Shown: positions 1 through 64,000, counted from the stretch's first letter. The stretch: 64,000 nucleotides of DNA from a virus (IMGVR_UViG_3300032259_000003:1-64000); one strand, 5' to 3'. The notes: generated by a model not told the origin, from the letters alone. Translations and numbers: made by a program.

Positions 1-101
1 TACTTGGCGGCCCAAAATATAAAGAATGGTGTATGGATCCCCTACGTCATGCCGATTACGTGCAATTCTCGAATAGATGGTTATGGAAAGAGGCTGAATA
101 A
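1..101 (+). CDS. 3' end of early hypothetical protein (partial; same as 36230-36565)
   Basis: Identical to the end of the 36230-36565 ORF; TAATG stop/start overlap. Confidence 0.75.
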   Translation, partial: LGGPKYKEWCMDPLRHADYVQFSNRWLWKEAE

Positions 102-358
102 TGAAGCACATCAACAATATTTACAACATCACCGTTTACGACCCAACCAATTTGATGCTACAACACGGCATCGAATTTTTGGATAACGAGACCGATGAGT
201 TGATAGAAGTACGTAATTGGTCTTATATCAGTGAGTGGCTCGATCTAAGCGAGTCGTTCACGCCTAAAAATGAACACTGCGTAATTTATAATGTAGGCGA
301 GATATTTGACGGTCGCGCGGTATACGGTCGGGACTATGCCATTGTGAGGTTATCATGA
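101..358 (+). CDS. Hypothetical early protein
   Basis: 85-aa ORF; homologue at 37526-37783; overlaps with neighbours. Confidence 0.8.
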   Translation: MKHINNIYNITVYDPTNLMLQHGIEFLDNETDELIEVRNWSYISEWLDLSESFTPKNEHCVIYNVGEIFDGRAVYGRDYAIVRLS

Positions 359-561
359 GCGAATTAGAACGCTTAGAGTTAAAGATTACGCCTGAGATAA
401 AGGATACGTTAGGCTGGTTAAAAAAAGAGCTTGACTGTCGCTCGAATAGCGAAGTGGTTAGGCTGGCCATTGTCAAACTGGCGTTGGATAGCGGTATCAA
501 ATTAGAAGACGACACGCCGGCTTGGGGTAGTGGGTTGAATAGAGAGGATAAGTCATCATGA
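355..561 (+). CDS. Ribbon-helix-helix (CopG/Arc-like) DNA-binding protein
   Basis: RLELKITPEIKDTL...SNSEVVRLAI strand-helix-helix pattern; homologue at 37780. Confidence 0.6.
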   Translation: MSELERLELKITPEIKDTLGWLKKELDCRSNSEVVRLAIVKLALDSGIKLEDDTPAWGSGLNREDKSS

Positions 562-770
562 TAATTAACATCAAAACTGTAGCTCAAGAAGCCATCCAAC
601 AGTGTGATGACTTTCCAGGGTTGCCGATGTTGATGGCTATCAATGATACCCGTCACCGGCTAACCGTTGCTAACAAATATACTCAGGAAGATGTGTTAAT
701 TCAGGTAGCACTAATGCGTGGCTCACGTCGGGGCAATTCAAACCGTATTTTTAGAATAGGGGAGTGGTAA
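558..770 (+). CDS. Hypothetical protein
   Basis: ATGA overlap, GAGGATAAG RBS; homologue at 37983. Confidence 0.75.
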   Translation: MIINIKTVAQEAIQQCDDFPGLPMLMAINDTRHRLTVANKYTQEDVLIQVALMRGSRRGNSNRIFRIGEW

Positions 771-771
771 A

Positions 772-951
772 ATGAAGATCAAGTTAAACGAAGAACAAGA
801 GAATAAGTTTTTGATAGGTGTCGTTGAGGCGCGGGCCGCGTTGGTGGCAATATTGAATATCACGGCTGATGAAGAATATCGCGCGGACCTGCGGCTGGTG
901 ATTGCCAGCATTACCGACTTGCAAGACAAATATTCACCGCTGCCATTCTGA
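772..951 (+). CDS. Small protein (59 aa, MKIKLNEEQENKFLIG...), tandem copy 1; not in ORF track
   Basis: GGGGAG RBS; paralogues at 979-1155 and 38475-38651. Confidence 0.75.
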   Translation: MKIKLNEEQENKFLIGVVEARAALVAILNITADEEYRADLRLVIASITDLQDKYSPLPF

Positions 952-978
952 TGCACAACAAAAAGGAGAGTAACTAGC

Positions 979-1155
979 ATGATCAAGTTAAACGAAGAAC
1001 AAGAAAACAAGTTTTTGCTGCGTGTCGTTGAGGCGCGGCTGGCGTTGGTGGCGATATTGAATATCACGGATGACGAAGAATATCGCGCGGACCTGCGGCA
1101 GGTGCTCGCCAGCATCCGCGACCTGCAAGACAAATATTTACCGTTGTCATTCTGA
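979..1155 (+). CDS. Small protein (58 aa, MIKLNEEQENKFLLR...), tandem copy 2; not in ORF track
   Basis: AAGGAG RBS; frame conserved in three copies. Confidence 0.8.
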   Translation: MIKLNEEQENKFLLRVVEARLALVAILNITDDEEYRADLRQVLASIRDLQDKYLPLSF

Positions 1156-1247
1156 TGCACATCTTATTCTGTTGTGGCCTGTGGTTGGTGGCCTCGTTTG
1201 CCGGGTCGCTATTGATAGCAAAGTTTATCAAGGTTGGCAAGGGATAA
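1155..1247 (+). CDS. 30-aa single-pass membrane peptide MHILFCCGLWLVASFAGSLLIAKFIKVGKG; not in ORF track
   Basis: TGATG coupling; copy at 38651-38743 differs by two synonymous changes and A->V. Confidence 0.65.
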   Translation: MHILFCCGLWLVASFAGSLLIAKFIKVGKG

Positions 1248-1251
1248 ACGC

Positions 1252-1288
1252 AAAACGCGCGACTAGCTGGGTAGTAGTCGCGCGTTTT
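1252..1288. terminator. Bidirectional intrinsic terminator
   Basis: 14-bp perfect stem AAAACGCGCGACTA/TAGTCGCGCGTTTT between convergent operons. Confidence 0.8.
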
Positions 1289-1357
1289 ATAGGATAAGGC
1301 GGGTAATGAATCCGCATTATCAGTCTAGCAGATAATAACCTGATATGCAAACGCAAA

Positions 1358-1389
1358 AAGCGGCGACTACGTTTAAATAGTCGCCGCTT
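1358..1389 (-). terminator. Intrinsic terminator for minus-strand late operon
   Basis: 12-bp stem AAGCGGCGACTA/TAGTCGCCGCTT followed by a T-run on minus; compensatory change in copy 2. Confidence 0.8.
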
Positions 1390-1434
1390 CCGATGTGTAG
1401 CCTAGTCAAAACAACTAGAATTATAGTATAGCGT

Positions 1435-3006
1435 TTATTCGTTATCTTGCAAGTCAACCACGATAACCTTGCCGATGGCTTGCTCCAATGTTGAATTCCA
1501 ATTCCGAATTAATAGCGCGTAGCCCTCAAGTAGCGCGGCGTGTGCTTCGGCTTCGGCTTGTGTTGCGAATCCCTGTTCGGGCAAGGGTAACGTGATAAAA
1601 TACTTGGTGTCGGGTTCCGGTTCGGGTTCCTCTGGCACATAGTCCGTTAGGGTGACATAGTCGCCATGAATCCAACCCAATAAGTTAAATAGTCCATCTT
1701 CAACCGTTACACTTGTATCGGTATCGAATCGGGCCGGTAACCACGGGCCGTTTTGCTCTTCTCTCAATACGTAACCGTAACGCTGGTTAATTGCCAATAT
1801 CGGCGGGTTGGTCGGGTCAGTGTTGGGTAACGCGCGGACATTCACCTTATAATTACCGGCGGGCGTGAATAGGGCTGGTTGCCAGCGTGGGTCAGATAAT
1901 TCTATCATTGGCTCCTCGTTTTCCGGTTCGTTATTCTCTCGTAGCAATTCAGACCATATCACCATATAGTTGTGTAGTTCGGTATCGGCTCCAAAATTAA
2001 ATGCGTCGATGGTATCCCAATTATCACCAAATGACCACATGAACGGCAAAAACCCTTCGACCCATTCATTATAGTTTTTCTCGGCCCATATCCATTGCTC
2101 CCAAATGGCCTGCGAGATAGTCCATTCTGGCCAATAGTATGCCCAAAGGTATTCATGAGAATAAGCGCCGCGCATAGTCCAATAGGGTAAGGGTACGCCA
2201 TGCTGGTTCTCAAGAATATCATACATATTCGTACCGTCGTTGGCCTTCACATCTGGGAACCGATCAAACCCAAATTCTGTGAATACAAATTTTACAGGGT
2301 CTAGCCCTAATCCAAATATGGCGCGGTGCTGTAACCAAGTCCAGCGGAATTGATGATAATAGTAAGGGATAAATTCCACGCGATAGTCGGGTAATATCCG
2401 CGCTTCGTCTTCGTTATCGAGGTATAACCATGTGTCAGGGTGTACCCGTTCCTTATAGCGCAGGTCATCAGCTAACCACCGCGCTTGTCCAAGTGGCAAT
2501 AAAAGCGCGGCATACTCATGATAGCCTAGTTTTAACACATCGCTACGGGTCGATAAAACACGCAATAGATAATCATACGCGCCAGCTTGTAGATGGTTCC
2601 TATCAATGCTACCGGCTGCAAAATTCCCAATTACGCCTTTATACCCATTATCGGCTAGATGGATCGACACATCAGCCAACCAATTATTCCGGGCGCGACA
2701 CTCGGCCTCACTCCCAACGTTTGGCTCGTTGAGGACATATTTCCATATATGCCGTCTACCATCCATCAAACCATTGGCATAATTAATCGGGTCTTCGTTA
2801 CGCCATTGGTTTCCCTCTTTTGTGGAATAGGCGCGGTCAATAACGTTAGTTTGGCCTTGCGTCTGGCTATAGATGGCTTCTGCTATGTCTACATTTGACA
2901 TAACGAGCATCCAGGCCGGCCGGGTTTTGTCAATGTAATCTAAAAAATATTGGACATTGCCCAGCCGTTGGCCATTGGCATTAAACCCCCAGCGGAAGGT
3001 ATTCAT
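1435..3006 (-). CDS. Putative lysin: clan GH-A-like TIM-barrel glycoside hydrolase with C-terminal SH3-like domain
   Basis: LNEPN and FTEFG catalytic-type motifs, GYHEY; VNVR...GWIHGDYV SH3b-like segment; next to holin-like gene at end of late operon. Confidence 0.55.
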   Translation of the reverse strand: MNTFRWGFNANGQRLGNVQYFLDYIDKTRPAWMLVMSNVDIAEAIYSQTQGQTNVIDRAYSTKEGNQWRNEDPINYANGLMDGRRHIWKYVLNEPNVGSEAECRARNNWLADVSIHLADNGYKGVIGNFAAGSIDRNHLQAGAYDYLLRVLSTRSDVLKLGYHEYAALLLPLGQARWLADDLRYKERVHPDTWLYLDNEDEARILPDYRVEFIPYYYHQFRWTWLQHRAIFGLGLDPVKFVFTEFGFDRFPDVKANDGTNMYDILENQHGVPLPYWTMRGAYSHEYLWAYYWPEWTISQAIWEQWIWAEKNYNEWVEGFLPFMWSFGDNWDTIDAFNFGADTELHNYMVIWSELLRENNEPENEEPMIELSDPRWQPALFTPAGNYKVNVRALPNTDPTNPPILAINQRYGYVLREEQNGPWLPARFDTDTSVTVEDGLFNLLGWIHGDYVTLTDYVPEEPEPEPDTKYFITLPLPEQGFATQAEAEAHAALLEGYALLIRNWNSTLEQAIGKVIVVDLQDNE

Positions 3007-3248
3007 TAGCCTACCGTTTCGGTGGGTTCATCTTCTCCGCGTGACGGTCTCAAATTATTGAGCATACGCGCGAATCCAATTAGTATATCGTCTATTGTGG
3101 TCTTCGTCTTCGATGCTAACCGTTGCGCAATATCAAGCAAGCGGTTGACTTCTTGTTTTGTCACGTGGCGCTCGACTTTTAGACCTGCAATCATCACAAT
3201 GAGAATGATAATCATTTGTGTGACCTGGTTAAATGTTTGTGAATCCAT
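3006..3248 (-). CDS. Holin-like small membrane protein
   Basis: N-terminal hydrophobic helix; upstream of lysin; identical protein at 40502. Confidence 0.5.
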   Translation of the reverse strand: MDSQTFNQVTQMIIILIVMIAGLKVERHVTKQEVNRLLDIAQRLASKTKTTIDDILIGFARMLNNLRPSRGEDEPTETVG

Positions 3249-3263
3249 GTTATGCCTCTTTCG

Positions 3264-3974
3264 TTAGGTACTAATGAGTTGTAGAAATATCATTGCATAA
3301 ATTTCGGTGCTGCCGTCGCTTGTGGCATTGCCTAGTCCAGTTGTCGCTTGCGCGCCGGCGGTATAATGGCGTAGTTCGTATGCGTCGGTTCCGTTGGCTG
3401 TAAAGTAGGTTTCCATCAACGCGCGGGTTTGAACATTATTTCCTGATGCGTTATAAGTACTTGCACCATAGTCTACATAGGCGGTCCCTGTGACGTTGTA
3501 TATTGCTAATCGGTGGCCGTTAACTTTAAAGGCAGGGGCCGAAGCTCGCAGGTAGTAATTGCCGGCTATCGGTGTAAATTGGTTAGTTGATATTGTAACC
3601 AACGATTTTAGATCGCTTGCCTCTGTATTTAAGTCTCTGACGTTCCAGGTTGTGGCCGAAGATGACCCGCCATCAGTGCCGCTGGTTTTTTCATCCCGGA
3701 TAATTGCAAAATGAGCAACCCCCGGAGCCCACAATAAACCGGTCGTTTCACCGCTGGCAACGGTTAATACTTGCCCGTTGGTTGTCCCAACCGGTAGCCG
3801 GGCGGCGGCGGTTGAATAGGTGCTTATGTCGCCTTTGGTTGTGGTCGGGTTGGCCGCTGCTATATTGGTGGCGTTGGTTGTAATTGCACTATCGAGTTCT
3901 GATAAGGGGCTGTTCAAAGTCGTATTATTGAGTGTTGCACCGCTAGAGTGTGCGGTATGATGATTGGTCGTCAT
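3264..3974 (-). CDS. Tail fibre / minor tail protein (module A)
   Basis: Last tail gene; Thr-rich N-terminus, KGDI..RLPVG motif and DEKTSGTDGG..RDLNTE domain typical of phage fibres. Confidence 0.6.
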   Translation of the reverse strand: MTTNHHTAHSSGATLNNTTLNSPLSELDSAITTNATNIAAANPTTTKGDISTYSTAAARLPVGTTNGQVLTVASGETTGLLWAPGVAHFAIIRDEKTSGTDGGSSSATTWNVRDLNTEASDLKSLVTISTNQFTPIAGNYYLRASAPAFKVNGHRLAIYNVTGTAYVDYGASTYNASGNNVQTRALMETYFTANGTDAYELRHYTAGAQATTGLGNATSDGSTEIYAMIFLQLIST

Positions 3975-5693
3975 TTATGTAACCCTTCCGGTTATTATCG
4001 TGCCGCGAATTAAAAATTGTAACACAATTTGCCCACCTTGCCCTAATGGATTGGTAACGGTGACGGTATGCTGTCCTCTTCCATCATTACCATTATCTAC
4101 AACAATATCGGTTATATCTATCTCATACGCAACCATTTGCGTAGATGATGAGGCAGGGTAGCTACTTAATACGGTTGTGCCATCAACAACAAAGGTCATT
4201 GTGTCGGGGTACGTTCCCGCTATCACGCTCTCTTGTGTTGGACCGACCACAATTGGAAACGGGCCGTTATAGGTAAAATAGCGGGCTTCGTATGAGTCAA
4301 TTATCATTGTCACATTCTCAACGCTTAACACGTCGTCGGATATTTGAAAATGGAATACCGGGTTATTACCTGCTGCTGACTCAATCCATTCAGGATAGGG
4401 GCCCAATGACCATATATTGTATGTCGGTTTATACGAGACGCTATTAACCTCAATTGCATCTAACCCGCCTACAATAATTTTGCCGGCGTTGTTGGTTTCG
4501 CGGTCAATATTTGACGCTTTGATTCGCACCTCACTACCGGTCATTCCAACCGCTTCGTTAATTGAGGTAATATAAAAATTGCCGTCAATGTTTTTGAGGG
4601 TATACGGTACGCCTTCAATATTAACCGTCTCTACATATTGGACTTCAATTAGATCGCCGATATACAATGGTGTTTGTAAATTCCTAAGCGAGATATGCAA
4701 CGTTTGCAACGGGTCCTTATGCCTTAATAACCACTCGGCCGCTGCATCATATAATATATTCGCACTATTCCGCAATGATATTGTAGATGTTCCGATAGGT
4801 GCGATTTGCTTAAAATTTAACCGGCGCTCAATTTGTCCGTAGGTAGTAATTGACGCGCTATCACTCAAATAGTATAACGTTCTGGAATCGGGGCCAAGCA
4901 TGGTTTGAATTGTGTAGGGGCTGGTTCGAGTTGCTTTTTCGAGTGTAACCGCTGCGTCTCCGTCGCCTGCGCCCACTGGCAATATCCAGTTAACCAGGTC
5001 GCGCGAATCGTCTACAACTTCAATGTTATCCGCAATCACCACGTCCGTATTGAATCGGATCTCCGGCTTATCGCCTTTGGCAAAGGCCACACGAACCGCG
5101 CTTTGTACGTCGTTGGTTCCAATGATTAATTCCTTTTTGACAGTATCCGATTCTCGCATCCGATTGCCGCCAAAGTCATTTATAAATTGGATCGCTTGTA
5201 GCACCGATTGACCATCAAAGCGGGTATCTATTTGACCGCCTAGATTGGTTATCCCATTGTCGTTTAAGGTCCAACCGGCCAATGTGAGGAGCGACGTTAC
5301 CACTATTTTTTGAGATGTGCCGGTATATTCACGCGCTAATAAGGTGCTGATATTACTCAATAGATCAAGCGTTTGCGGCCCGTTGACGCTTAACGATAAG
5401 CCCCCGACTTGATGCGAATAACTAACGTCATCAGCAATAAACGATTGGACTTTGCGCTTGCTACTGCCGGGTGTCTGTACCCAAATCTCAACGACAACCT
5501 TCGAGCTTAACAGATCCATCGCGCGAATTGTAAAGTCAGGGTGTAGCGGGATTGTTTCAATACCGCCGGTTCCCACTCCGTTTAATTCCTGAGTCGCGCT
5601 TGCAGACACTAAACGGATGGGACCTACGCCTATTTTGCTTGTATAACTTGCGTCCCAAATTTCGGCCCATAAATGATAGGTGTCAAACGACAT
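3975..5693 (-). CDS. Tail tip hub / minor tail protein
   Basis: 572 aa, follows distal-tail gene; LVNWILPVGAG motif typical of siphovirus hub proteins. Confidence 0.65.
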   Translation of the reverse strand: MSFDTYHLWAEIWDASYTSKIGVGPIRLVSASATQELNGVGTGGIETIPLHPDFTIRAMDLLSSKVVVEIWVQTPGSSKRKVQSFIADDVSYSHQVGGLSLSVNGPQTLDLLSNISTLLAREYTGTSQKIVVTSLLTLAGWTLNDNGITNLGGQIDTRFDGQSVLQAIQFINDFGGNRMRESDTVKKELIIGTNDVQSAVRVAFAKGDKPEIRFNTDVVIADNIEVVDDSRDLVNWILPVGAGDGDAAVTLEKATRTSPYTIQTMLGPDSRTLYYLSDSASITTYGQIERRLNFKQIAPIGTSTISLRNSANILYDAAAEWLLRHKDPLQTLHISLRNLQTPLYIGDLIEVQYVETVNIEGVPYTLKNIDGNFYITSINEAVGMTGSEVRIKASNIDRETNNAGKIIVGGLDAIEVNSVSYKPTYNIWSLGPYPEWIESAAGNNPVFHFQISDDVLSVENVTMIIDSYEARYFTYNGPFPIVVGPTQESVIAGTYPDTMTFVVDGTTVLSSYPASSSTQMVAYEIDITDIVVDNGNDGRGQHTVTVTNPLGQGGQIVLQFLIRGTIITGRVT

Positions 5694-6544
5694 TATATAT
5701 ACGCCTCATCAAAGTGAATAGTTAAATTCGCATCAGCGCTAAACGTGCCGCTAATGGTCAAGGTTTGCGCGCCGGGTGCAATCTCTAACCATGCGCCATG
5801 TGTCACGGTTAAATTAGAGAACGTAGGGCTGACGCTCATTTTGCGGCAATCAATAATAACCACGTCACCGGCGGTCAACGTGTCGCTATACAGGATCGAG
5901 TATACCGTTTCTCCGCCTTCATTATTCCATGTGATAGTCGGATTGGTAACGGTCACACCGGCCGGTATATCCCAGCGGATATAGGGCGACACTGGCGCTA
6001 TACCGTAATTCGTAACCGTTACCGTGTCGGTGTCTGCTACTGGTGATTGGTCTAACTTGATAGGTGGCATGACCAAGCCGCCATCCATGACATGTCCGTC
6101 ATTCATAAATAGTTGGCTTTCGGCATAATACCATTTGCTATCAGGGCATTGGAAGTTAAGCTGTATGACTTGCCGTAGGTGTGGTGTTTGTTGGACGTTC
6201 TGCGCACTCCGAACATTGGATACATGCGCCCAGGTCCATACCACGCGGCCGTTCCGGTGCTGCATAAATAATTTACGCATGCCTTGATAGGCCAACGCGC
6301 GAATCATATCTATTTGTGTTCCTACGTCAAAGGAATCGTTACCCTCGATGATATACGAGACGGACAAATTACCCATTTCCGCAGGGGCGCGCCCGGTTCC
6401 GTACGGGTTTATTGCACCATCCTTACCGATAACACGAACTGATTGCTGTAGGGTATCGGCAAAGTTGTAATCAATGCTAACCTGTTTGTTTTGTTGGAAT
6501 AGGTAGGCTGTGGTTCCCAGTCCAAAGCGGATTAACATATCCAT
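5693..6544 (-). CDS. Distal tail (Dit-like) protein
   Basis: Directly after TMP; FQCPDSKWY and VTNYG..VSPYIRW patterns. Confidence 0.65.
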   Translation of the reverse strand: MDMLIRFGLGTTAYLFQQNKQVSIDYNFADTLQQSVRVIGKDGAINPYGTGRAPAEMGNLSVSYIIEGNDSFDVGTQIDMIRALAYQGMRKLFMQHRNGRVVWTWAHVSNVRSAQNVQQTPHLRQVIQLNFQCPDSKWYYAESQLFMNDGHVMDGGLVMPPIKLDQSPVADTDTVTVTNYGIAPVSPYIRWDIPAGVTVTNPTITWNNEGGETVYSILYSDTLTAGDVVIIDCRKMSVSPTFSNLTVTHGAWLEIAPGAQTLTISGTFSADANLTIHFDEAYI

Positions 6545-8271
6545 TAACGAACACCCCCTCGTATAAGTTCACGCTGTATATCCTGCCCAATTTGTCGACC
6601 GTTGGTGGCGTTGGTCTGTACGGTAACGTTAACCGCCCCTTGGTTTGAGGATTGGTTAAGCAAGGTTACGCCGGCCGCCCCGCCAGCATTAGCAAGCGCT
6701 AGGGCTGATTGGAAAGCGCCGCCCGCGCCGATATGTGAGGCTTTGAATTGATTGGCATAACTTTTATTGTGCGAATCTTGAACGGTTCGCATCTCATTAG
6801 ATATTGCACCGCCGGCCGCATTTAATACATCTTGAGGAGTCCACGACCCGTTTTGTAGTCCCTGGATAATTGTTTGTACATTCCGTAACGCGGGCGCGAC
6901 TACGTTATCAATTAAATCAGCAAAACCAAACCAATTATTTTTATAAGCCGCAACCATTCCACCGCCTAACACAATAGCCAAGCCTAGCGGACTCAATGCG
7001 GTTGCAATCAACGCGCCTATTCCTGATTTGACAACGCTAACCGCCATTCCAAGTCCAGTTAAAGCCCCCGTTCCGCCAACAAAGGCCGCGGCAAGGGTGA
7101 GAACAGTATTGGTTAATTCCGGGTTTTTACTTGCAAATATCCCCACCTGGTTAATTACTTCTGTAAAATCTTTGACAATAGGCTTTAAAACATCTTCCAT
7201 AAATGGCGTAAATGCCAAAATATTCATATTTTGGATTGACCCCCCAAGCGCATCCATCGCAAACGCAAAGGTGTCGAGTTTGCTGTCGGCTATTTCGACG
7301 GCGGACCGTTGGGAGTCCATTGCGTTCCGCATTTGTTCAATGCCGCCTTGAGCGCGAAGGGCCGATATTGCCGTAATACCATAAGATCCGGCCAGGTCTT
7401 TCATAATGGCGTTTTGCTCTTCTGGCGTTTTGGTGTCTAATGCAACAAACATTTCCTTCAATACCGTGTTAAAATCGCGGTAGCCTCCCTCCGCGGTGTA
7501 CATTGAGGTCCCCAAAGTGGACCACGCTTTTTCGGATCTTTCGGTTCTGTCTGTCATAGCTAAAAGCATCGACTTGAGCGCCGTTCCTGCTTCGGTTCCT
7601 TTTATATTGTTTTCTGCAAATATGGCCATTGTTGCCGCGGTATCTTTTAACCCAATATTATAATTGGCTGCGATGTTCCCGCCGCCGGCCATTGCATCCA
7701 ACATCATGCTAACCGTTGCGCTTGATGAGCTTGATGCCCTAGATAAAGTATCGACTACATCAGCGGTATCGCCAAGTTCCAACCTCATAGCGGCCATTAC
7801 ATCGGTTACACCATCAGCGGACCGCTTGAGGTCAATGCCCCCAACCGTCGCCAATAGCATCACCTGGTCAATACGTTCCATTGCCTGAGTCAGGTTATCA
7901 CCACTGGCCATTAATTCGAGCATACCATTTGCAGCATCTTGAGCGCTAAAAAATGTATCCTGCCCTAGTTGCAGCGCTTTATTCCGTACCGCGTCCATGT
8001 CTTCGCCTACCACACCGGTACGCGCGGAAATCTCATTCATTGCAGATTCAAAGGCACTCGCATCTGCAATACCTTTACCCAACGCCAACCCGATTGGGAT
8101 CGCCGCCATTTGTGCTTGCCGCCCAAAGTCGGACCACTTGCTTTTAACGTCGTCCATTGAATTTCCAAAGGTTCGCATTTTGGAATCGGCGGTGTTTAGC
8201 TTGTTATTGAATTGTGAGTCATCTATGCCTAATGTCGCGTGTAGGCTGGCAACTTCAACGCCTAAACCCAT
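6544..8271 (-). CDS. Tape measure protein (TP901-family core)
   Basis: FESAMNEISA...GIKGTEAGTALKSML; Ala/Gly-rich helical protein after chaperone. Confidence 0.9.
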   Translation of the reverse strand: MGLGVEVASLHATLGIDDSQFNNKLNTADSKMRTFGNSMDDVKSKWSDFGRQAQMAAIPIGLALGKGIADASAFESAMNEISARTGVVGEDMDAVRNKALQLGQDTFFSAQDAANGMLELMASGDNLTQAMERIDQVMLLATVGGIDLKRSADGVTDVMAAMRLELGDTADVVDTLSRASSSSSATVSMMLDAMAGGGNIAANYNIGLKDTAATMAIFAENNIKGTEAGTALKSMLLAMTDRTERSEKAWSTLGTSMYTAEGGYRDFNTVLKEMFVALDTKTPEEQNAIMKDLAGSYGITAISALRAQGGIEQMRNAMDSQRSAVEIADSKLDTFAFAMDALGGSIQNMNILAFTPFMEDVLKPIVKDFTEVINQVGIFASKNPELTNTVLTLAAAFVGGTGALTGLGMAVSVVKSGIGALIATALSPLGLAIVLGGGMVAAYKNNWFGFADLIDNVVAPALRNVQTIIQGLQNGSWTPQDVLNAAGGAISNEMRTVQDSHNKSYANQFKASHIGAGGAFQSALALANAGGAAGVTLLNQSSNQGAVNVTVQTNATNGRQIGQDIQRELIRGGVR

Positions 8272-8279
8272 AATTAATC

Positions 8280-10790: not shown

Positions 10791-10791
10791 A

Positions 10792-11717: not shown

Positions 11718-11739
11718 AAACTTCCTCGATTCTAAAGAG

Positions 11740-11757
11740 AGGGGGACAATGCCCCCT
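11740..11757 (-). terminator. Possible terminator/attenuator hairpin
   Basis: AGGGGG/CCCCCT 6-bp stem after 305-aa gene; weak U-tract. Confidence 0.4.
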
Positions 11758-53803: not shown

Positions 53804-53815
53804 ATGATGATACCT

Positions 53816-56192: not shown

Positions 56193-56194
56193 GA

Positions 56195-56563: not shown

Positions 56564-56581
56564 AGCTCAATCCTTTAATTA

Positions 56582-57322
56582 TTAGCGTCCTGCGAGTTCT
56601 AAAAGTGCCGCGATAAGCGTTCCTATTGCACCACCACCGGCCGCGGTTGCGCCGCCTTTGATGGCTATCTCTTTGGCGATGCTTTTAAAGCTATCAATCC
56701 GAGCGCGGCGGGCTTCAACTTGTTGCTTGCGTTCCAATTCGCGGGCCGTCTCCCGTGACTCAATTTTGAGAAGTTCCGCCCTCATCTTATTAATATCAAG
56801 CTGAAGCGCTTTGACATTCTCTAACGTTTGTTGTGTCTCTTTATTATACCCTTGCAATTCAACGCGGAACATATCCATGCGACCAACCAGCCCGGTATTA
56901 TCCCCGTTGCCCTTCAAGACGTTAAGGATCTCCGGGACATTCTGCGATAACATATGGTTGTTGGCTGCCAGGGTTGCTATTTGATCGCGTTGTTTTATAT
57001 CAGTTTTGTCTAAGACCTCGATGGCTTTAGCGTTGGTGCGAATATCGGCCTGCTGTTTTGCGTATTCGTCCAATATTTTTTGTGATAGATCCTCGAATAA
57101 ATTATGCAATGTAAAAAACCCGTCGCTAAAAATTTTATCAATTGTTTTAGACGGCATATAGTCGTTAAGCGTATCGCTAATCATAGCTTGAACGGCGCTA
57201 TGTGTTACCAAGTCCTTTTTGATAGATGCAAACTTTTTATCAAATAGGGCTTCTATTAATTCAATTGTAATTTCTTGCGTGTTTTTTTTAGGGGCCTCGA
57301 TGTTATTGTTAGGTTCGTTCAT
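56582..57322 (-). CDS. Coiled-coil protein with C-terminal TM (homologue of 19518)
   Basis: Direct comparison. Confidence 0.7.
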   Translation of the reverse strand: MNEPNNNIEAPKKNTQEITIELIEALFDKKFASIKKDLVTHSAVQAMISDTLNDYMPSKTIDKIFSDGFFTLHNLFEDLSQKILDEYAKQQADIRTNAKAIEVLDKTDIKQRDQIATLAANNHMLSQNVPEILNVLKGNGDNTGLVGRMDMFRVELQGYNKETQQTLENVKALQLDINKMRAELLKIESRETARELERKQQVEARRARIDSFKSIAKEIAIKGGATAAGGGAIGTLIAALLELAGR

Positions 57323-57412
57323 TTGGACCCCGTGTTATAATTAACATAGTGTATAACCTCATTTTATACGCTCATGGCTCCGGGTGTTTTTCCTCACCGC
57401 GGGGCCTTCAAA

Positions 57413-57826
57413 TTATTGTAAATAAACACCACACGACGGATGAAAGATAAGTAATCCGTTTATACTAGCGTTTATATCCCACCAAATGCCTGCATACACC
57501 AATACCGTATGATCGGCATAACTTCCGCTTGACGCATACCAGACACCATCAACGGCATAGAACGAATAGGCGCGCCCGTAGTCATCAAAGGCGCGGTTAT
57601 TGCCGTCTTTCCAATCCTGCCAGAGGGAGGTCACGTTGTAGCCGTCAACAGTAGGGCAAAATTCATAGGGCGCGGTCGGTGCTGGGACATACTCACATAT
57701 CCATAACGTGCAATCGTCTTGAGCGTCCGTTACCAGAACCAACCCGAACATAACCAATAATACCCATGCGATCATCACGCGGCGCAGGGCGGCGTGTCCG
57801 CTTGGGTCATCTATCCACCTATCCAT
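57413..57826 (-). CDS. Membrane-anchored protein (homologue of 20350)
   Basis: Direct comparison. Confidence 0.7.
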   Translation of the reverse strand: MDRWIDDPSGHAALRRVMIAWVLLVMFGLVLVTDAQDDCTLWICEYVPAPTAPYEFCPTVDGYNVTSLWQDWKDGNNRAFDDYGRAYSFYAVDGVWYASSGSYADHTVLVYAGIWWDINASINGLLIFHPSCGVYLQ

Positions 57827-58643
57827 AACCGGCTAACTCCGATTCTAGTGCTAATTCAACCGTCACTAAATTACTGCCACCATCAGGCAGAACGCCGTCA
57901 AGTGCCAACTGCAACGCCGCTATTTCATCAATCAAACGCTGTTTTTCTGCGACGTGGTTCGCAATGCGTGTGTTAATCCCATTGTCTGCACGAATAATGA
58001 GGTTAATTAAACCATTGTGACTATCGCGGATGCCTTGCAGACAATCGGCCTTCGGTGTTTTTACCTCAACATCATCCACAAACTCACTAAAATTATTCGT
58101 GTTCTCAAACGTGGTATCTACTTCGGTTACAATGTCCTCAACCACGCCAATAAAAACAGCGTCACGAATATCTTGCAGGTTATTTTTGAGTGCCACCAAT
58201 TGAACGCGGTTGGCTTCACGGTTGGCTCTAAACCCATCCTTACGCGCTATCGTCGCCTCTGTACGGGCAATCAAGTTTTGCACACGGTTCAGTTTACGAA
58301 CCACTTTATGCCTGCGTCGTCGTTCGTCGTTGGTGTTGGCGTTGGAGTTGCTCTCGTAAAGAATACCATCAACGGTTAAGTTGCCGTTTATATCACGGTC
58401 GTCAGGTAGTCCAGCGTAGGTATACGTTAATTCTATTGTGTCGTGTGTGGCCTGTGGTGCGCTGACTGTCACGACGCAGGTATTGGTTCCCGATACGCTG
58501 GGTCGGTTGCCATCGGCTACTTGCATACTATCCCACGCAGGGACGAATATACCGTCAATCTCAATGTCAGGGAGTGCGAGTAGATCAATTTGTATCGTTG
58601 GGCGGTTGCCCGTCCATGTGCTTAGATACGCTTTTACTGTCAT
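57819..58643 (-). CDS. Coiled-coil protein (homologue of 20756)
   Basis: Direct comparison. Confidence 0.65.
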   Translation of the reverse strand: MTVKAYLSTWTGNRPTIQIDLLALPDIEIDGIFVPAWDSMQVADGNRPSVSGTNTCVVTVSAPQATHDTIELTYTYAGLPDDRDINGNLTVDGILYESNSNANTNDERRRRHKVVRKLNRVQNLIARTEATIARKDGFRANREANRVQLVALKNNLQDIRDAVFIGVVEDIVTEVDTTFENTNNFSEFVDDVEVKTPKADCLQGIRDSHNGLINLIIRADNGINTRIANHVAEKQRLIDEIAALQLALDGVLPDGGSNLVTVELALESELAGYG

Positions 58644-61600
58644 GATAATACCGTCCCGACTGCATCCGTATAATCGCTTAGTCCATCCGCTGGGATACTC
58701 GTTATTTGTAGGTTAGTCGCATAGCCCTGTAGGTGTGACGTGTTGCTGGTATTTAACGCGCCCACAACAGTATTGCCATCACTCAATGCAGCCCCAACTA
58801 TATCATTAGTCAAAACGACGGTATCGGTTGACGTGCCATTGATAAATAATTCAGCAGTTCCGCCACTGGTCGGTATGTCAATCTCAACGAGATAGTTCAC
58901 CGTAGCGGCGGCGGTGTCAAATGTCATTTGGTTGGTTGCACCGGCTGCACGATAATCAACAATCAATTGGCTGGCCGTTGTGCCAAAATAACCACTAATA
59001 TAATTATCTGCATCCACGTAAATTAAAAACGCTTGGCATAATGTGGTGCTTACCGTATTGGTCGCAGGTTGGACATAAAAACTATAGCGCTTGTCATTCA
59101 TACTCAAGCTGGTTAATCCAATATTGAGATGTCCCGCGCTTGTGAAGTCTATATATTGTTGGCCATTGGGCGCGAATAATGCCGATACCGTTGCCGAGCT
59201 TAAGGTATCCGCTGCACCGCCACTACTCATCAAGTTATTGCCGTAAGAATTATTGAGTTTGGCTAGCGTATACGTGTCACTGAGATGTTTATACCAGGTC
59301 GCCCCGTTTGCCGTTATCAGGTTTGATGCACGTAGCGCGGTCAGTTGGTCTATCGTCTGGTTAACGCTGATATAGGCGGTATAGATATTTTTATCGTAAC
59401 TTGTTGTACCACTACTAGAATTTGCTGCGCCGATAGCGGTTACATTGGCTGTGTAACCTGTGAAGGCAACAAACGCCGTTGCATCACTTGCTACAAGCTG
59501 GCCATTAATCGAGAGTTTTAAACCGTCACTATCAATCTTGATAGCAATCTGACATAAATCACCGTCACCTAATGATAAACCGGAGAGCGTATAACTCGCA
59601 TTATGGGCGCTACCGTCGTCATAGCTTAGAACTAGCGCGGTTGTGCTGGTATATAGGTGTATAAAGTCGGTGCTATCGTTTTGAATGTATAGAATAGAAT
59701 TCACCGCGTCGGTTAAGTCGAGTTCAACGTCAAAGACAGCCGATAAACTACTTAAGGAAACGGGTAGGAAGCTCGCTATATCCGCATAACCAATAACACC
59801 ATATTGTCCCTTTGCTCCACGCACTGTGCCTAATGTGCCTGTTGTTGCTATCGCCGTATTCAATACATCATCGTAGAATGTACCGTCTGGGTTGGTAACA
59901 ATCCCGACCGTTGGCGATACGAGGCTGTTTAAATTCGCATAATAATCCTTGATAACCATCTCCGCCTGAATCATATCGTTCAGGCTCTCGGTTGCCAGTT
60001 GGTGCAATTTGGCCATCCGTTTGAATGTTCCGTACCATGCGTCGTTTCCGCTGGTGGCTAAATCATTACCATAGATATAATTACCTGTGCCCGTTGTGCG
60101 ACCACCAACGCCGGCGGTGTCGGTGCTTAATGTATTGGCCGTTGCATTAGTATATAGCTCGGCGGTGTCCGTCGCTTCGTTCATGCTTGCAATAACTAAC
60201 GTGTTGTCACCTAATACAATCCCACCGCTAGTCAATTTGGCTTGAAGGTCGGTGGTTACATAATTGACCTCATAATTTAAGCCGGTGGTACTCGCAAGTT
60301 CTAACACGTCATTGCTGGATAGTTGTTTAAAAAATTTACCCGTTGAATTGCCACCTAGTCTATAGGCGTTGCCCTCAAATATCCATGACCCCGTATCGGT
60401 GTTCAATTCTGCGACATAGGTCTGCAACAGTGAACTATCACTCTCTGAGAATAAAAAGCGGTCACCTTCGACAAGCCGGACTTCATTGGGAGATAAGTCC
60501 CGGCCTGTCCCGAGTCGTTCCGTCAATGATCCATTTTTAAAGTACATATCGGCATTTAAATAACTCAGGGCTTGAATGTCATTTGCAAACCGTTGTGTGT
60601 AAGTGTCGTATACCGTCATATCAAAGTTATGCGTACCGGCTACAGTAGCATAATATTTAGTGCCGTATTCGGCTTCGGCGGCTAGGGTCACGGCAAGGCT
60701 AGCCGTTGTTGCGCCATTTTTATATGCTGTTAGTGCTGTGCCTGCAAAGACAAATTTTAATAATGCCCCATCGACAGCCGTTATCGTGCCGATCAATGTC
60801 GCGGTCGGGTCATACTCGTAGACCTCACATGCACCGGCTACCGTAAAACGAAGTTCCACCATCTCCGACACATTAACGGAGTGCCTAAAGAATAAGCTCG
60901 TAACGTCCGTTACGGGATCGCCGTTGCTTGTAACCTCAACCGTGTAGTCGGATACGCCTAATTCGTTAACTGCTATGGATGTGGTTCGTGCGCTGTATGA
61001 TGCTTGACTCAGTAGGTCGCCTGTGGGTGACACGTTGTAGAGTGGTGCATCAGTGATTACACCTGTGTAGGTGACTTCTTGGAGTGACCAATTGTCCAGA
61101 GTTACAATTTGACCTGCTGACATTGCGTTCATAGCAATAAATGTATTTGTCACGCTTTTTGCCCCAAAATAAATCTCATAAACCGTAGGGGTCGTTGTTA
61201 TCGCCTGAACACTGTAACTTGCTCCATCATATACAACTATATTACATGCGCCTGTATTTACTGACGCGGTTACTTGATATTTATACACCCTGCCTAGTGT
61301 CAGATCAGTAGACAAATCTGATGTGTTTCGTAAAAAATTATACGCGCCGCTAGGGTTATCATTGTATGTGATCTGTAGCGCATTCCCAACATTGGCAATA
61401 GAATTTGTACCATATGCCAACCAACTATATATACCACTATCAAACGTTCCTGCGCCAGCATCTACCAAATCCGCACCGAGCTTCTTACCCATCAGCGCGT
61501 CATAAATCGCTTGCACTTGTGCCTGTGTTTTTGATACGTTGTAAATTCCGACCGCGTGGAAATTCGTCCCAGCTAAAATCGGCAACGTGCCTGCGTTGGT

Positions 61601-62191
61601 TGCCCCAATGGTCAGTGCAGTATATGATCCAGTCATCGCACCATGAGCGTATGTTTTCGCGCCTGTCTCTGTGCCATCAGCATGGCAAACTGTCCAGTTC
61701 GCGTCTGCGCCGTCCATCTCGTAGGCAATAACAATTGTCTCGTTCTCAGGTATGCCCGTAATTTGGTGAGATATTGTACCGCCTGCATCATGAAATACAT
61801 TTAACGTGTTCGCGGCGGTGTGACGGATGCTAAATGAGTTTGAAGCATCAATGTAACCGTGAAACAATGCCTCTGCTGTGCTATACGTGCCTAATGTGCC
61901 AACCCAAATAACCGTAAAATTCGATGATGATTTACCTATAGCCGTTGGAACAGTCCCACGATGCTCACCATTACCACGCAACGCCTTCCGCGCTCCGCTG
62001 TGGTTGCTGTAGGCGGTGTAGTTGTGACCACCTGTTATCGTCGCGGTACGTGCGGCTACCTGTTCGGTCATGGTTGCGCCGCTTGACCCGTCCGCGGTGT
62101 AGAGGGCTATTGCGTCGTCAAGCATAACATCAAACCACTGCGCGCCACCGGCCATCAATATAGGTATTGCAGAAGATAAATTCCGTAACAT
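58640..62191 (-). CDS. Large multi-LamG protein with extra CBM-like insert (mosaic homologue of 21577)
   Basis: Start reassigned to MLRN to match unit A. Confidence 0.65.
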   Translation of the reverse strand: MLRNLSSAIPILMAGGAQWFDVMLDDAIALYTADGSSGATMTEQVAARTATITGGHNYTAYSNHSGARKALRGNGEHRGTVPTAIGKSSSNFTVIWVGTLGTYSTAEALFHGYIDASNSFSIRHTAANTLNVFHDAGGTISHQITGIPENETIVIAYEMDGADANWTVCHADGTETGAKTYAHGAMTGSYTALTIGATNAGTLPILAGTNFHAVGIYNVSKTQAQVQAIYDALMGKKLGADLVDAGAGTFDSGIYSWLAYGTNSIANVGNALQITYNDNPSGAYNFLRNTSDLSTDLTLGRVYKYQVTASVNTGACNIVVYDGASYSVQAITTTPTVYEIYFGAKSVTNTFIAMNAMSAGQIVTLDNWSLQEVTYTGVITDAPLYNVSPTGDLLSQASYSARTTSIAVNELGVSDYTVEVTSNGDPVTDVTSLFFRHSVNVSEMVELRFTVAGACEVYEYDPTATLIGTITAVDGALLKFVFAGTALTAYKNGATTASLAVTLAAEAEYGTKYYATVAGTHNFDMTVYDTYTQRFANDIQALSYLNADMYFKNGSLTERLGTGRDLSPNEVRLVEGDRFLFSESDSSLLQTYVAELNTDTGSWIFEGNAYRLGGNSTGKFFKQLSSNDVLELASTTGLNYEVNYVTTDLQAKLTSGGIVLGDNTLVIASMNEATDTAELYTNATANTLSTDTAGVGGRTTGTGNYIYGNDLATSGNDAWYGTFKRMAKLHQLATESLNDMIQAEMVIKDYYANLNSLVSPTVGIVTNPDGTFYDDVLNTAIATTGTLGTVRGAKGQYGVIGYADIASFLPVSLSSLSAVFDVELDLTDAVNSILYIQNDSTDFIHLYTSTTALVLSYDDGSAHNASYTLSGLSLGDGDLCQIAIKIDSDGLKLSINGQLVASDATAFVAFTGYTANVTAIGAANSSSGTTSYDKNIYTAYISVNQTIDQLTALRASNLITANGATWYKHLSDTYTLAKLNNSYGNNLMSSGGAADTLSSATVSALFAPNGQQYIDFTSAGHLNIGLTSLSMNDKRYSFYVQPATNTVSTTLCQAFLIYVDADNYISGYFGTTASQLIVDYRAAGATNQMTFDTAAATVNYLVEIDIPTSGGTAELFINGTSTDTVVLTNDIVGAALSDGNTVVGALNTSNTSHLQGYATNLQITSIPADGLSDYTDAVGTVLS

Positions 62192-62211
62192 ACATACACC
62201 TGTAAGTTTAA

Positions 62212-62237
62212 AAGCCCTATAGGGTTGTATAGGGCTT
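62212..62237 (-). terminator. Hairpin (copy 2 of 24759-24783)
   Basis: Same 10-bp stem, different loop. Confidence 0.55.
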
Positions 62238-62264
62238 CGCAAAGGAGGAGAGTTAAATATATTT

Positions 62265-62324
62265 ATGACTCTACTCTCATTATATCACATTTTACTTATA
62301 GCCATTCCGCTATTATTACAATAG
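62265..62324 (+). CDS. Candidate 19-aa peptide MTLLSLYHILLIAIPLLLQ
   Basis: Copy of 24810-24869; AAAGGAGGAG at 62241-62250. Confidence 0.35.
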   Translation: MTLLSLYHILLIAIPLLLQ

Positions 62325-62326
62325 CA

Positions 62327-62722
62327 TTACAATGACAATTCAATATCCGCTATCACTTCGCTGGCAAACTCTAAAATGCCTTTAACGTCGCGCCAGGTGT
62401 AATGACTTTTAAAACGAATAGACATACAGCGCGCGATGTCCGCCTGCAATTGTTGACCTCTTAATACACTACCCAGCATATATTTACGTTCCAACCGTAG
62501 CGCGTAACGCTCTTCAACGCCTAAATAATTGCGATATGTGCGGTGCCGGTTCTCACTCGCTGTTCCAAACCGTCGCTTGCCGAACGCTTGAAAATTGATA
62601 TTCTGAAATGCCGCGCGTTCTATTGCAAAGCTGTTATGTGTATTAAGATGATACTCTGGCATCGTGACAATATCATTTAATAGCGTTGGGTTGGCTCTAA
62701 TGGCCTGTATAATATCGTTCAA
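62327..62722 (-). CDS. Hypothetical protein (homologue of 24872)
   Basis: Direct comparison. Confidence 0.75.
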   Translation of the reverse strand: MNDIIQAIRANPTLLNDIVTMPEYHLNTHNSFAIERAAFQNINFQAFGKRRFGTASENRHRTYRNYLGVEERYALRLERKYMLGSVLRGQQLQADIARCMSIRFKSHYTWRDVKGILEFASEVIADIELSL

Positions 62723-62816
62723 ATTGTAAGCTCCTCTCTTATCTTACATAGTATAACACATTATTGAATCGTTCCTCATTTGGGTAAATTTGCGATAAAC
62801 TTGGGATAACACACAA

Positions 62817-62864
62817 CCCCCCTATATCCCCCTATACCCCCCTTCAACCATTAACACCCCCCCC
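62817..62864. repeat. C6-TATAT-C5-TATA-C6...C8 array (variant of 25360-25406)
   Basis: Read directly. Confidence 0.85.
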
Positions 62865-62904
62865 GTATTTTTTTGTAGAGTGGGTGTTAACACGGTAGGG
62901 TAGG

Positions 62905-63276
62905 TTAACCGGTTCGTTTTTGTTTGTGACGCTCGGCGCTCTCTTCGTGATACTCTAAAATTTTAAAATACTCATTGGCCAACGTGGTGCGGTCGTCAAT
63001 CGCTCTATTTTTTGTTACTACACCATACACCACAACATCACGCATTTTTTTAGTCCGTACGATCTGGTTCTTTTTACCGACGGCTTTAACCATCCCGCGC
63101 GTCCGTAATTCTTCCAGGCCCCGGCGGCTCCGGTTGCCTTTACCCTGACTATAGCGTTCTGACACATCGTACTGGGTCGCGTCACCGTAACGAATAAAAC
63201 CGGTTAATACCTCAATGCACCGCTGTAATTGCGCCATACGTGCGACCCGTTGGTTATAGTTAAATTCTCCGGCCAT
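62905..63276 (-). CDS. Putative wHTH protein (homologue of 25448)
   Basis: Direct comparison. Confidence 0.5.
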   Translation of the reverse strand: MAGEFNYNQRVARMAQLQRCIEVLTGFIRYGDATQYDVSERYSQGKGNRSRRGLEELRTRGMVKAVGKKNQIVRTKKMRDVVVYGVVTKNRAIDDRTTLANEYFKILEYHEESAERHKQKRTG

Positions 63277-63527
63277 TAGTCCATCCCTTCCAGCGCATCG
63301 CGCCCTAATGTATAGTCGAGTTCATGTAAATAGAGTTGCGCATCTTGCCGCGCGTCGTCATCTTCAATTTGCATGACAACCCATGCTAAAAATTCGATAT
63401 GCTCCACTACTTCGGCGGCGGTCATCTGTACGCAATTAATACACAAGCGCAAATCATGGTAAGCATATAAATAGTTGCCCTGCTCGATCTCGTGGTTGGC
63501 CTGTTGGATGTATCCGTCACGTGTCAT
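63276..63527 (-). CDS. Hypothetical protein (homologue of 25819)
   Basis: Direct comparison. Confidence 0.7.
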   Translation of the reverse strand: MTRDGYIQQANHEIEQGNYLYAYHDLRLCINCVQMTAAEVVEHIEFLAWVVMQIEDDDARQDAQLYLHELDYTLGRDALEGMD

Positions 63528-63721
63528 GATCTTTTATCCATTTGGGCCTTTTGGATATTGATGAGGTCTGTCTCAAACATTTCAATATATTCAGTATCCC
63601 CTCTCATTCGAGCAAGGTACAACGCTAAACTAACAGTTATTCGCAACTCATTTAGTTTGTCTTTTGAGTGTCTACCATACACCCACCAAAACCCTATTTT
63701 ATTCATTATTTGTTTCCTCAT
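63524..63721 (-). CDS. Hypothetical protein in the slot held by the pentapeptide gene in unit A
   Basis: ATGA overlaps on both sides. Confidence 0.7.
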   Translation of the reverse strand: MRKQIMNKIGFWWVYGRHSKDKLNELRITVSLALYLARMRGDTEYIEMFETDLINIQKAQMDKRS

Positions 63722-63936
63722 GATGCCTTATCCTTTCTTACAAAACGCTTCCATTCTCCATTGGTAATCTCATCGCGTGACATCGCCCACACATCACGCA
63801 TATTATTGAGCGCAAATAATAAGCGGCTGACGGTTGCCGGGCCATGTAGTGCGATATGGTCCCGTTCAGCGCGGTATAACATGGCATGGTCTTCGGTCGG
63901 GTTAATCCAAATTGTACAAAATTCATCAATATTCAT
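63718..63936 (-). CDS. Hypothetical protein (homologue of 26585)
   Basis: Direct comparison. Confidence 0.7.
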   Translation of the reverse strand: MNIDEFCTIWINPTEDHAMLYRAERDHIALHGPATVSRLLFALNNMRDVWAMSRDEITNGEWKRFVRKDKAS

Positions 63937-63969
63937 AATGCTTATCCTTTGTAATTATTCTATGCTCTA

Positions 63970-63998
63970 ATGATAGCATACACTATTAGATAGTGCAA
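63970..63998 (-). promoter_or_regulatory. Promoter TTGCAC-17-TATCAT (copy 2)
   Basis: Identical to 26837-26865. Confidence 0.7.
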
Positions 63999-64000
63999 CT

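Follow-up and report, generated by a model that had tools for sequence, protein, structure and literature searches.

Results

Organization of the record

The window, a 64,000-nucleotide stretch of viral DNA (IMGVR_UViG_3300032259_000003:1-64000), is the first 64 kb of an IMG/VR contig of 76,588 bp that runs through a first unit (U1; 36,464 bp, with virion module A), a second unit (U2; 37,755 bp, with virion module B), and the initial 2.4 kb of U2 once more. Self-BLAST recovers the order S1, module A, S2, early region, S1', module B, S2' that an earlier, sequence-only reading had proposed; the early region of U2 sits beyond the window end. The path does not lead back to U1 as a U1-U2 ring would; it is U1-U2-U2, with an exact second copy of the start of U2. 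CheckV scores the record as 100% complete, and IMG/VR labels it 'linear'. The features are listed below, with the strand where one applies.

1..105, contig start: final 105 bp of the 181-bp exact stretch common to U1 and U2
106..3262, U1 head segment and block S1: 91-95% identical to 37536-40758
101-1297, plus strand: small U1 ORFs within the head/S1 segment
1197..1327, exact repeat of 131 bp, equal to 38693-38823 in U2 (maximal exact matches)
1435-3006, minus strand: 523-aa putative clan GH-A-like glycoside hydrolase of U1 (model and conserved motifs)
2291..2498, exact repeat of 208 bp, equal to 39787-39994 in U2: second assembly-graph branch node
3006-3248, minus strand: 80-aa TM holin-like protein of U1, product identical in both units
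3263..19515, minus strand: virion module A (Pfam and PHROGs)
19516..26868, minus strand: block S2 of U1, 89-93% identical to 56580-64001
26067-26588, minus strand: pentapeptide-repeat protein of U1 (PHROGs)
26869..36388, early/replication region of U1 (PHROGs)
35770-36153 and 36230-36565, plus strand: ORFs of the U1 early region
36389..36569, pivot: 181-bp stretch with the same sequence in both units; the contig crosses from U1 to U2 here
36570..37535, plus strand: U2-only cassette, with a 102-aa ORF and a 218-aa pentapeptide-repeat protein with 15-bp tandem repeats
37536..40758, block S1' of U2: small plus-strand ORFs, hydrolase, TM protein
38931-40502, minus strand: 523-aa hydrolase of U2, 97% aa identity to the U1 copy
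40502-40744, minus strand: 80-aa TM protein of U2, same product as in U1
40759..56579, minus strand: virion module B (Pfam and PHROGs)
56580..64000, minus strand: block S2' of U2, extending past the window end
58640-62242, minus strand: 1200-aa LamG protein of U2, the copy in which the LamG domain was detected

Two virion modules on related backbones

TerL, portal, capsid, and tail genes are present in both modules without obvious breaks. Module A carries a TerS-like ORF, TerL (Terminase_6), an SPP1-type portal, a Mu gpT/Phage_capsid_4 capsid, a tape measure, Dit, and a tail fibre, with Pfam and PHROGs matches to Terminase_6N/6C, SPP1_portal (PF05133, SPP1 Gp6-like, at 5e-23), Phage_capsid_4/Mu gpT (PF25209 at 2e-17 and PF10124 at 3e-12), PhageMin_Tail, and SPP1_Dit. 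Module B has two extra ORFs, a TerS-like ORF, TerL (PHROG), an HK97-type Phage_portal (PF04860 at 1.8e-26), a Mu F-like protein (Mu_F), a 640-aa protease-capsid fusion with Peptidase_S78 (PF04586) and Phage_capsid (PF05065) in one chain, and tail genes, including a 669-aa protein that is probably the tape measure. By BLASTP (E<1e-3) the sole match between the two modules is a TerS-like ORF, with 58% aa identity. The Pfam, PHROGs, and BLASTP results agree with the sequence-only reading that the TerL, portal, capsid, and tail proteins belong to different families, and Pfam with its description of A as combining an SPP1-like portal with a Mu gpT-like capsid and of B as HK97-like with a protease-capsid fusion.

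The same reading had called the flanking blocks S1/S1' and S2/S2' near-identical, which overstates an actual identity of 89-95%. The non-virion backbone (20.2 kb) aligns at 91.7% identity over 76% of its length and over 43% of U1. At the left border (3262/3263) identity falls 14 bp upstream of the start codon of the 80-aa gene, and at the right border (19515/19516) it falls beside the stop of the 246-aa gene. The pair thus has a homologous backbone, structural modules without detectable homology, and sharp borders at gene boundaries, and the alignments make a solid case for complete head-tail module exchange between the two backbones at gene-precise borders.

Block S2 of U1 encodes proteins of 246, 137, and 274 aa, a 1053-aa LamG-domain protein, and small ORFs. 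The LamG protein is mosaic; the 'adhesin' label of the earlier reading has a LamG/ConA-like domain as its sole basis and is putative. The U1 early region encodes a DNA methyltransferase, a primase-helicase, a DnaD-like initiator, an endonuclease VII-like protein, an HTH regulator, an HJ-resolvase-like protein, Erf, and SSB, with a divergent promoter region near 35616-35770. Against 65095-74143 of the full contig it shows patchy identity of 81-96%, and by this alignment the early regions of U1 and U2 are homologous. The 218-aa protein of the U2-only cassette matches PF00805 (E 2.7e-52); the cassette is missing from the corresponding position in U1, and it aligns in inverted orientation, at 76% nt identity, with the gene at 26063-26543 of U1.

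The 523-aa protein had no sequence match in Pfam, PHROG, or PDB. Its predicted model is of low confidence (pLDDT 56), with leads to TIM-barrel glycosidases, and it has invariant NEP and TEFG glutamates; the low-confidence model and the conserved motifs point to a putative hydrolase of clan GH-A, the clan of the GH5/GH17-type TIM-barrel enzymes. With the 80-aa TM protein adjoining this putative glycoside hydrolase, the earlier 'lysis' label is plausible.

Integration genes, host, and relatives

The reported absence of integrase and host genes was confirmed: no tyrosine or serine recombinase (PF00589, PF00239) was found in the entire contig, in a search whose positive controls worked. The contig likewise shows no host genes, host flank, or att site flanked by host DNA, and no partition gene was found among the ORFs scanned. 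A tandem-prophage reading was rejected, there being neither integrase nor host DNA. Relatives are scarce: IMG/VR has none for queries with the 150-aa pivot ORF or the primase-helicase, an exact 48-bp pivot pattern had no match among JGI metagenome contigs (a set that may lack the record of the window itself), megablast of 26600-38000 had none among GenBank phages, and an exact-protein look-up has no record of the 111-aa pivot ORF. The best primase-helicase homologue has 43% aa identity, and so there is no outside genome to show the natural unit length or arrangement. Chloroflexota is a weak lead for the host.

Exact repeats and self-closure

The first 105 bp of the contig, which encode the 3' end of the 111-aa plus-strand ORF and then the next start codon, recur exactly at 36465-36569 and 74220-74324. 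Over a longer span 36389-38833 equals 74144-76588, exact over 2,445 bp (period 37,755). With this terminal overlap U2 closes on itself, whereas a 74-kb U1-U2 ring would lead back to U1. U1 overlaps itself at a period of 36,464 over 105 bp, exactly, as expected of a closed U1; its closure is less direct than that of U2, since the overlap falls inside the shared pivot and the sequence preceding the U1 head beyond the pivot appears in no assembly. Closure of a unit as its own ~37-kb circle, one of the tests proposed earlier, was thus found for U2, and the sequence of U1 is consistent with it.

All 19 mismatches between the U1 and U2 tails lie within 36277-36388, and the units join within an exact repeat whose length is no less than that of typical assembler k-mers. 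The whole contig stops 10 bp past the U2 equivalent of the 131-bp repeat, and both contig ends are at, or at most 10 bp from, exact shared repeats. Neither the 105-bp offset at the start nor the position of the end could be matched cleanly to a known assembler k, and the start offset equals none of the standard assembler k values known to us.

Independent assembly and depth

We compared the contig with an independent ENA assembly (MEGAHIT, k=141), made apparently from the same data and 100% identical in overlaps. Its contigs begin or end exactly at the 181-bp and 208-bp repeats or 141 bp inside them. The U1-head (2,467 bp) and U2-head (3,499 bp) contigs open on the same 141 bp of pivot sequence, then diverge, and both terminate 141 bp into the 208-bp repeat; the U1-tail contig terminates 141 bp into the pivot, module A lies in an 18,112-bp contig that spans 2954-21065 at 100% identity, and the remainder of U2 is one contig of 34,498 bp, equal to 39787-74284. 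The U1-U2 join is in none of the five contigs recovered.

Depth was taken as Logan contig k-mer depth (k=31, one value per contig, one run), by which U1-specific pieces have depths of 11.4, 13.8, and 18 and U2-specific pieces 33-40, with 34.2 on the 15,923-bp contig that holds module B and 39-40 on the U2-only cassette. The A and B sides therefore differ 2-3-fold in Logan contig depth, the marked difference in coverage for which the sequence-only reading had proposed to look, and this inequality excludes a pure 1:1 cointegrate. In both assemblies each virion module sits on its own version of the backbone. Coverage gaps (31003-32336 in X1, all of module B in X2) were not counted as evidence, since filtering leaves holes. 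In X2, a second sediment study, low-depth contigs match early-region pieces specific to U1 and a single pentapeptide piece of U2 type. There also seems to be a third, recombinant haplotype, which would imply that recombination between the two lineages is active. A loose end at 40758, considered as an S1'-to-module-A recombinant, is explained by the module-A contig, whose first bases coincide with the 100-bp exact flank.

Discussion

Two co-occurring phages, probably chained by the assembler

The record is, with high probability, not one replicon but the path that an assembler took through a figure-8 graph formed by two co-occurring ~37-kb phages. This was the second of two readings offered from the sequence alone, and it gains support from the self-closure, the joint in the 181-bp repeat, the break in the independent assembly, and the gap in depth. 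Two separate circular or circularly permuted genomes would touch at the exact repeats (181, 208, and 131 bp); the path would begin inside the 181-bp repeat, circle U1 once, re-enter the repeat, exit on the U2 branch, circle U2 once, add 2.4 kb of U2, and halt. U1 and U2 would then be related, apparently non-integrating phages of siphovirus type from one sediment sample, in which there may be more than two variants.

The first of the two readings, a cointegrate of 74 kb with the units at 1:1, conflicts with the unequal depth and with the U1-U2-U2 path. A broader form, in which all or most U1 is covalently joined to U2 in a ~74-kb ring or mixed concatemer beside an excess of free U2, may be compatible with the Logan depth; it also draws on the probable recombinant third haplotype, on the encoded Erf, SSB, and resolvase-like proteins, and on the U1-tail/U2-head joint that one assembler, that of JGI, produced, which, if read pairs were used, lends weak support to a real joint in some molecules. 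Such a cointegrate would arise where homologous recombination joins the units at the identical 181-bp or 208-bp stretches, and it would resolve into two ~37-kb genomes. However, after U2 the contig re-enters U2 and not U1, the depth is not 1:1, the independent assembly leaves the pivot broken, the contig has no integrase, att site, host flank, or partition function for maintenance, and 74 kb would probably be too large for heads sized for ~37 kb, and we regard this form as improbable. A minor fraction of real cointegrates may be present. That a sizeable fraction of U1 is joined to U2 as a hetero-multimer of ~74 kb or longer, through Erf-type recombination at the 181- or 208-bp stretches, strikes us as slightly more doubtful again; if true, the hetero-multimer would be one intracellular molecule with two complete, unrelated virion modules, resolving into reassorted ~37-kb genomes.

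A heterotrimer of the form U1-U2-U2, or longer mixed concatemers arising by replication in co-infected cells, faithfully assembled, would account for the path order and may fit the depth (1:2 expected from unit stoichiometry; about 1:2 to 1:3 observed). Yet a de Bruijn graph merges identical copies of U2 and so gives the same contig without a trimer, replicative intermediates would be a small share of bulk sediment DNA, and the sequence has no feature that separates a trimer from a graph walk; we give this account very little credence. Equally remote is a monomeric reassortant, with module A and early region 1 closed by a U2-type head with the pentapeptide cassette and the contig stringing variants together: no assembly phases across either repeat, and the third haplotype and the X2 contigs would suit it, but the U2 head has a depth of 33-40, near the 34.2 of the rest of U2, where a sum of ~48 is expected if U1 used the U2 head, and the X2 pieces (150-250 bp, at 2-4x depth) need not share one genome. 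Under such reassortment the 181-bp and 208-bp repeats would delimit four segments, which the population would hold in any combination.

Relation to known systems

The assembler walk favored here has precedents. The CheckV authors found concatenated genomes among IMG/VR contigs and judged them probable assembly artefacts (PMC8116208). The present record resembles those in its length of about twice that expected of the genome, its head-to-tail units, its joint in an exact repeat, and a last unit that overlaps itself exactly. Whereas those cases hold copies of a single genome, this record joins two phages with unrelated virion modules, and for this reason the k-mer frequency of the contig is just 1.11, against 1.0 for a single-copy contig; screens for k-mer duplication would probably miss such a chained record. 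In Phables, variant phages share unitigs in assembly graphs (PMC10104058). The likeness lies in co-occurring mosaic phages whose shared segments create bubbles or figure-8 structures that are broken or mis-threaded; the difference is that variant regions there are small, whereas the unshared lobes here comprise entire virion modules of 16 kb that belong to different families. Tandem double lysogens and prophage cointegrates also place two related phage genomes head-to-tail, but the present record has no integrase, host-flanked att-like site, or host genes, its depth is unequal, and its third unit is U2.

Exchange of structural modules between related backbones is familiar from lambdoid phages. 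It is also described for dairy streptococcal phages (PMC5311409; Desiere, Lucchini and Brussow 1998, cited in that paper). Both share with the present pair related backbones, unrelated head and tail modules, borders at gene boundaries, and conserved flanks as recombination sites, and both differ from it in that this is an uncultivated sediment lineage without close relatives, with both partners from one sample. Between U1 and U2 the exchange would have run through homologous recombination in the conserved flanks, and the phages' own Erf, SSB, and resolvase genes could have assisted it. The sequence-only reading had considered whole-module exchange notable in itself, which goes too far for textbook phage mosaicism between backbones that are ~92% identical and not near-identical.

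The practical value of the record is one of caution, as a chain of two different phages passed as a complete record. It would have biological weight only if a single molecule truly held both virion types, which the evidence speaks against. Split at the 181-bp pivot, the record gives two genomes, probably complete, from a sediment phage lineage that is poorly sampled, and the pair provides a natural example of whole head-tail module replacement that is not new in kind and is useful for studies of mosaicism.

A record that re-enters its second unit

The two-unit arrangement of this record (76,588 bp in full; IMG/VR class 'linear', CheckV completeness 100%) is most likely not that of a real molecule. 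Self-comparison of the whole record finds an exact 105-bp repeat in three copies (1-105, 36465-36569, and 74220-74324), and the final 2,680 bp match 36154-38833 with 19 mismatches; because these are all confined to 36277-36388, 36389-38833 and 74144-76588 agree exactly (2,445 bp). Given the 105-bp and 2,445-bp exact repeats, the record follows a path through one phage unit (U1), another (U2), and then U2 again:

1-36464: U1, first unit of the record
36465-74219: U2, second unit, with a period of 37,755 bp
last 2.4 kb of the record: second U2 start, repeating the first 2.4 kb of U2

After U2, a cointegrate ring of U1 and U2 would lead back into U1, but the record re-enters U2. The U1-to-U2 joint falls within the pivot (36389-36569), a 181-bp stretch without a single difference between the units, which also share exact matches of 208 bp (2291-2498 and 39787-39994) and 131 bp (1197-1327 and 38693-38823). 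Since the record starts 105 bp ahead of the U1/U2 branch point at the pivot's end and stops 10 bp beyond the 131-bp repeat as it occurs in U2, it both begins and finishes at graph branch regions. Its k-mer frequency is merely 1.11, because U1 and U2 differ, and such a record would presumably escape a k-mer-frequency screen.

Assembly artefact or real joint

An independent MEGAHIT assembly from ENA (k=141) is broken at the same repeats as the record's joint. Five contigs were recovered, matching the record at 100% identity across overlaps except in the first ~100 bp of the contig for the U1 tail (the sequence before the pivot), and the U1-to-U2 junction is absent from all five. The head contigs, which follow the pivot in U1 (2,467 bp) and U2 (3,499 bp), share their initial 141 bp (pivot), diverge thereafter, and both stop once they have covered exactly 141 bp of the 208-bp repeat; the remainder of U2 is a single 34,498-bp contig (39787-74284). 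An 18,112-bp contig carries virion module A with U1-type flanks (2954-21065), and the U1 tail contig stops 141 bp into the pivot. This last contig, L003, is pure U1 from 35606 on (100%), while its first ~100 bp (35478-35605) carry U2 alleles of an 81-aa gene (35371-35616): either the sample has a third haplotype, produced by recombination, or MEGAHIT, running several k values, built a chimera.

Depth was taken from Logan contigs of the public run in which the record is best represented, a sediment metagenome with 0.89 of sampled words. U1-specific pieces have depths of 11.4, 13.8, and 18, and U2-specific pieces 40, 38.7, 33, and 35.1, with 34.2 for a 15.9-kb module-B contig. Logan run SRR9045813 is one in which a module-B contig occurs. 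The piece at 35640-36183 is somewhat deeper (18), consistent with the segment having a third carrier. The unequal depths exclude a population of 1:1 cointegrates, and fit alike two circles, U1 entirely cointegrated with surplus free U2, or a U1-U2-U2 trimer. The U2-type head segment, at 33-40, is close to the rest of U2 (34.2) and not to the sum of U1 and U2 (~48), which argues against U1 normally using a U2-type head.

The sequence-only reading had offered either a real ~74-kb cointegrate or an assembler's walk through a figure-8 graph of two phages. The walk is favored by the joint within an exact repeat, the broken independent assembly, and the depths, and we regard an assembly artefact as highly probable. 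Readings with a real joint, although two of them share the fit to depth, are together unlikely: the simple cointegrate is at odds with the return to U2 and the unequal depth, and a 74-kb form would have nothing found to maintain it. Tyrosine and serine recombinases are absent from the whole contig (positive controls worked), in line with the earlier claim of no integrase between units; the record lacks a host flank, and the ORFs scanned include no partition gene. The artefact is also of a known kind: IMG/VR contigs with concatenated genomes are held to be probable assembly artefacts in the CheckV paper (PMC8116208), and variant phages with common unitigs in assembly graphs are described by Phables (PMC10104058). 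That U1 closes on itself would follow from parsimony, the basis being such because the sequence preceding the U1 head appears in no assembly.

Two related phages and their genes

No fewer than two phages, related to each other and about 36.5 and 37.8 kb in size, occur in one sediment sample. Their parts are as follows:

3263-19515: module A, with Terminase_6 TerL, SPP1-type portal, Phage_capsid_4/Mu gpT capsid, PhageMin_Tail tape measure protein, SPP1_Dit protein, and tail fibre
40759-56579: module B, with TerL (by PHROGs), HK97-type portal, Mu F-like protein, and a 640-aa S78 protease-capsid fusion
19121-19531 (-): TerS-like ORF of A, directly upstream of TerL
55129-55536 (-): TerS-like ORF of B, directly upstream of TerL
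S1 and S1' (shared lysis-like blocks of U1 and U2): 80-aa single-TM protein adjoining a 523-aa protein
S2 and S2' (shared blocks): LamG-domain protein, 1053 aa in U1 and 1200 aa in U2
shared early region: DNA methyltransferase, primase-helicase, DnaD-like initiator, endonuclease VII-like protein, HTH regulator, HJ-resolvase-like protein, Erf, and SSB

The partly confident model of the 523-aa protein has structural matches to clan GH-A TIM-barrel glycosidases (PslG, GH17, GH5; E 5e-5 to 1e-3, with low TM-scores). The protein's few homologues retain an NEP motif along with the glutamate of TEFG, in which we see the acid/base and nucleophile pattern of clan GH-A; a function in lysis or as a depolymerase is plausible. 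The lineage is isolated: IMG/VR look-ups, an exact-pattern scan of JGI contigs, and a GenBank phage search returned no relatives, and the closest outside match of the primase-helicase has 43% identity.

The units also differ locally. A pentapeptide-repeat gene (PF00805, 15-bp DNA repeats) lies at 26067-26588 (-) in U1 and 36873-37529 (+) in U2, at different sites on opposite strands with 76% nucleotide identity; the cassette 36570-37535 is missing from U1, and the U2 S2/early border has 164 bp in place of the gene, which seems to behave like a mobile accessory gene. A run from another sediment study has contigs of low depth (2-4x) that align to early pieces specific to U1 with identities of 97% and above. 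One contig there aligns to the pentapeptide gene of U2 type across a joint that leaves out 37463-37982 (region 37462-37983), hinting at a further mosaic relative elsewhere. The U1 methyltransferase has 340 aa (27244-28266); its U2 counterpart (past the window end, at ~64.8-65.1 kb of the record) is in split calls, including an 89-aa PF00145 fragment. Imperfect direct repeats of 45, 90, and 135 bp (32182-32445) lie within the 256-aa endonuclease VII-like ORF (31792-32562), and 31003-32336 has no matched Logan contig, which is no evidence of absence, since contig filters leave such holes. Where the leftward early operon and the rightward ORFs diverge, both units conserve an intergenic region (35628-35700); it carries a perfect 14-bp palindrome, ATACAATATTGTAT, amid promoter-like sequence, making it a likely operator.

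Virion module exchange on a shared backbone

The layout proposed from sequence (S1, module A, S2, early region, S1', module B, S2') is borne out by repeat structure and alignments, but the shared blocks, described as near-identical, measure 89-95% identity. Between units, 43% of U1 aligns at 91.7% identity, equal to 76% of the 20.2-kb non-virion backbone; the early regions are also homologous, that of U2 lying beyond the window end, and the LamG-domain protein is mosaic, with two divergent internal stretches. The modules do belong to different families, as had been claimed for TerL, portal, capsid, and tail: BLASTP of all minus-strand ORFs gives a sole match, the TerS-like ORF (58% amino acid and 69% nucleotide identity). 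Since this gene is kept while TerL, portal, and capsid are replaced, the true exchange border may separate the small and large terminase genes.

The module borders are gene-precise. On the left (3262/3263), identity stops 14 bp upstream of the start codon of the 80-aa gene, adjoined by a 100-bp exact match; on the right (19515/19516), it stops beside the stop of a 246-aa gene. The swap would probably have taken place in co-infected cells, through homologous recombination within the conserved flanks. Erf-type annealing proteins tolerate diverged substrates, and lambdoid phages are one case of whole structural-module exchange. Such exchange has long been documented among related phages, including those of S. 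thermophilus (PMC5311409), so that the swap described here adds another example to a phenomenon already known.
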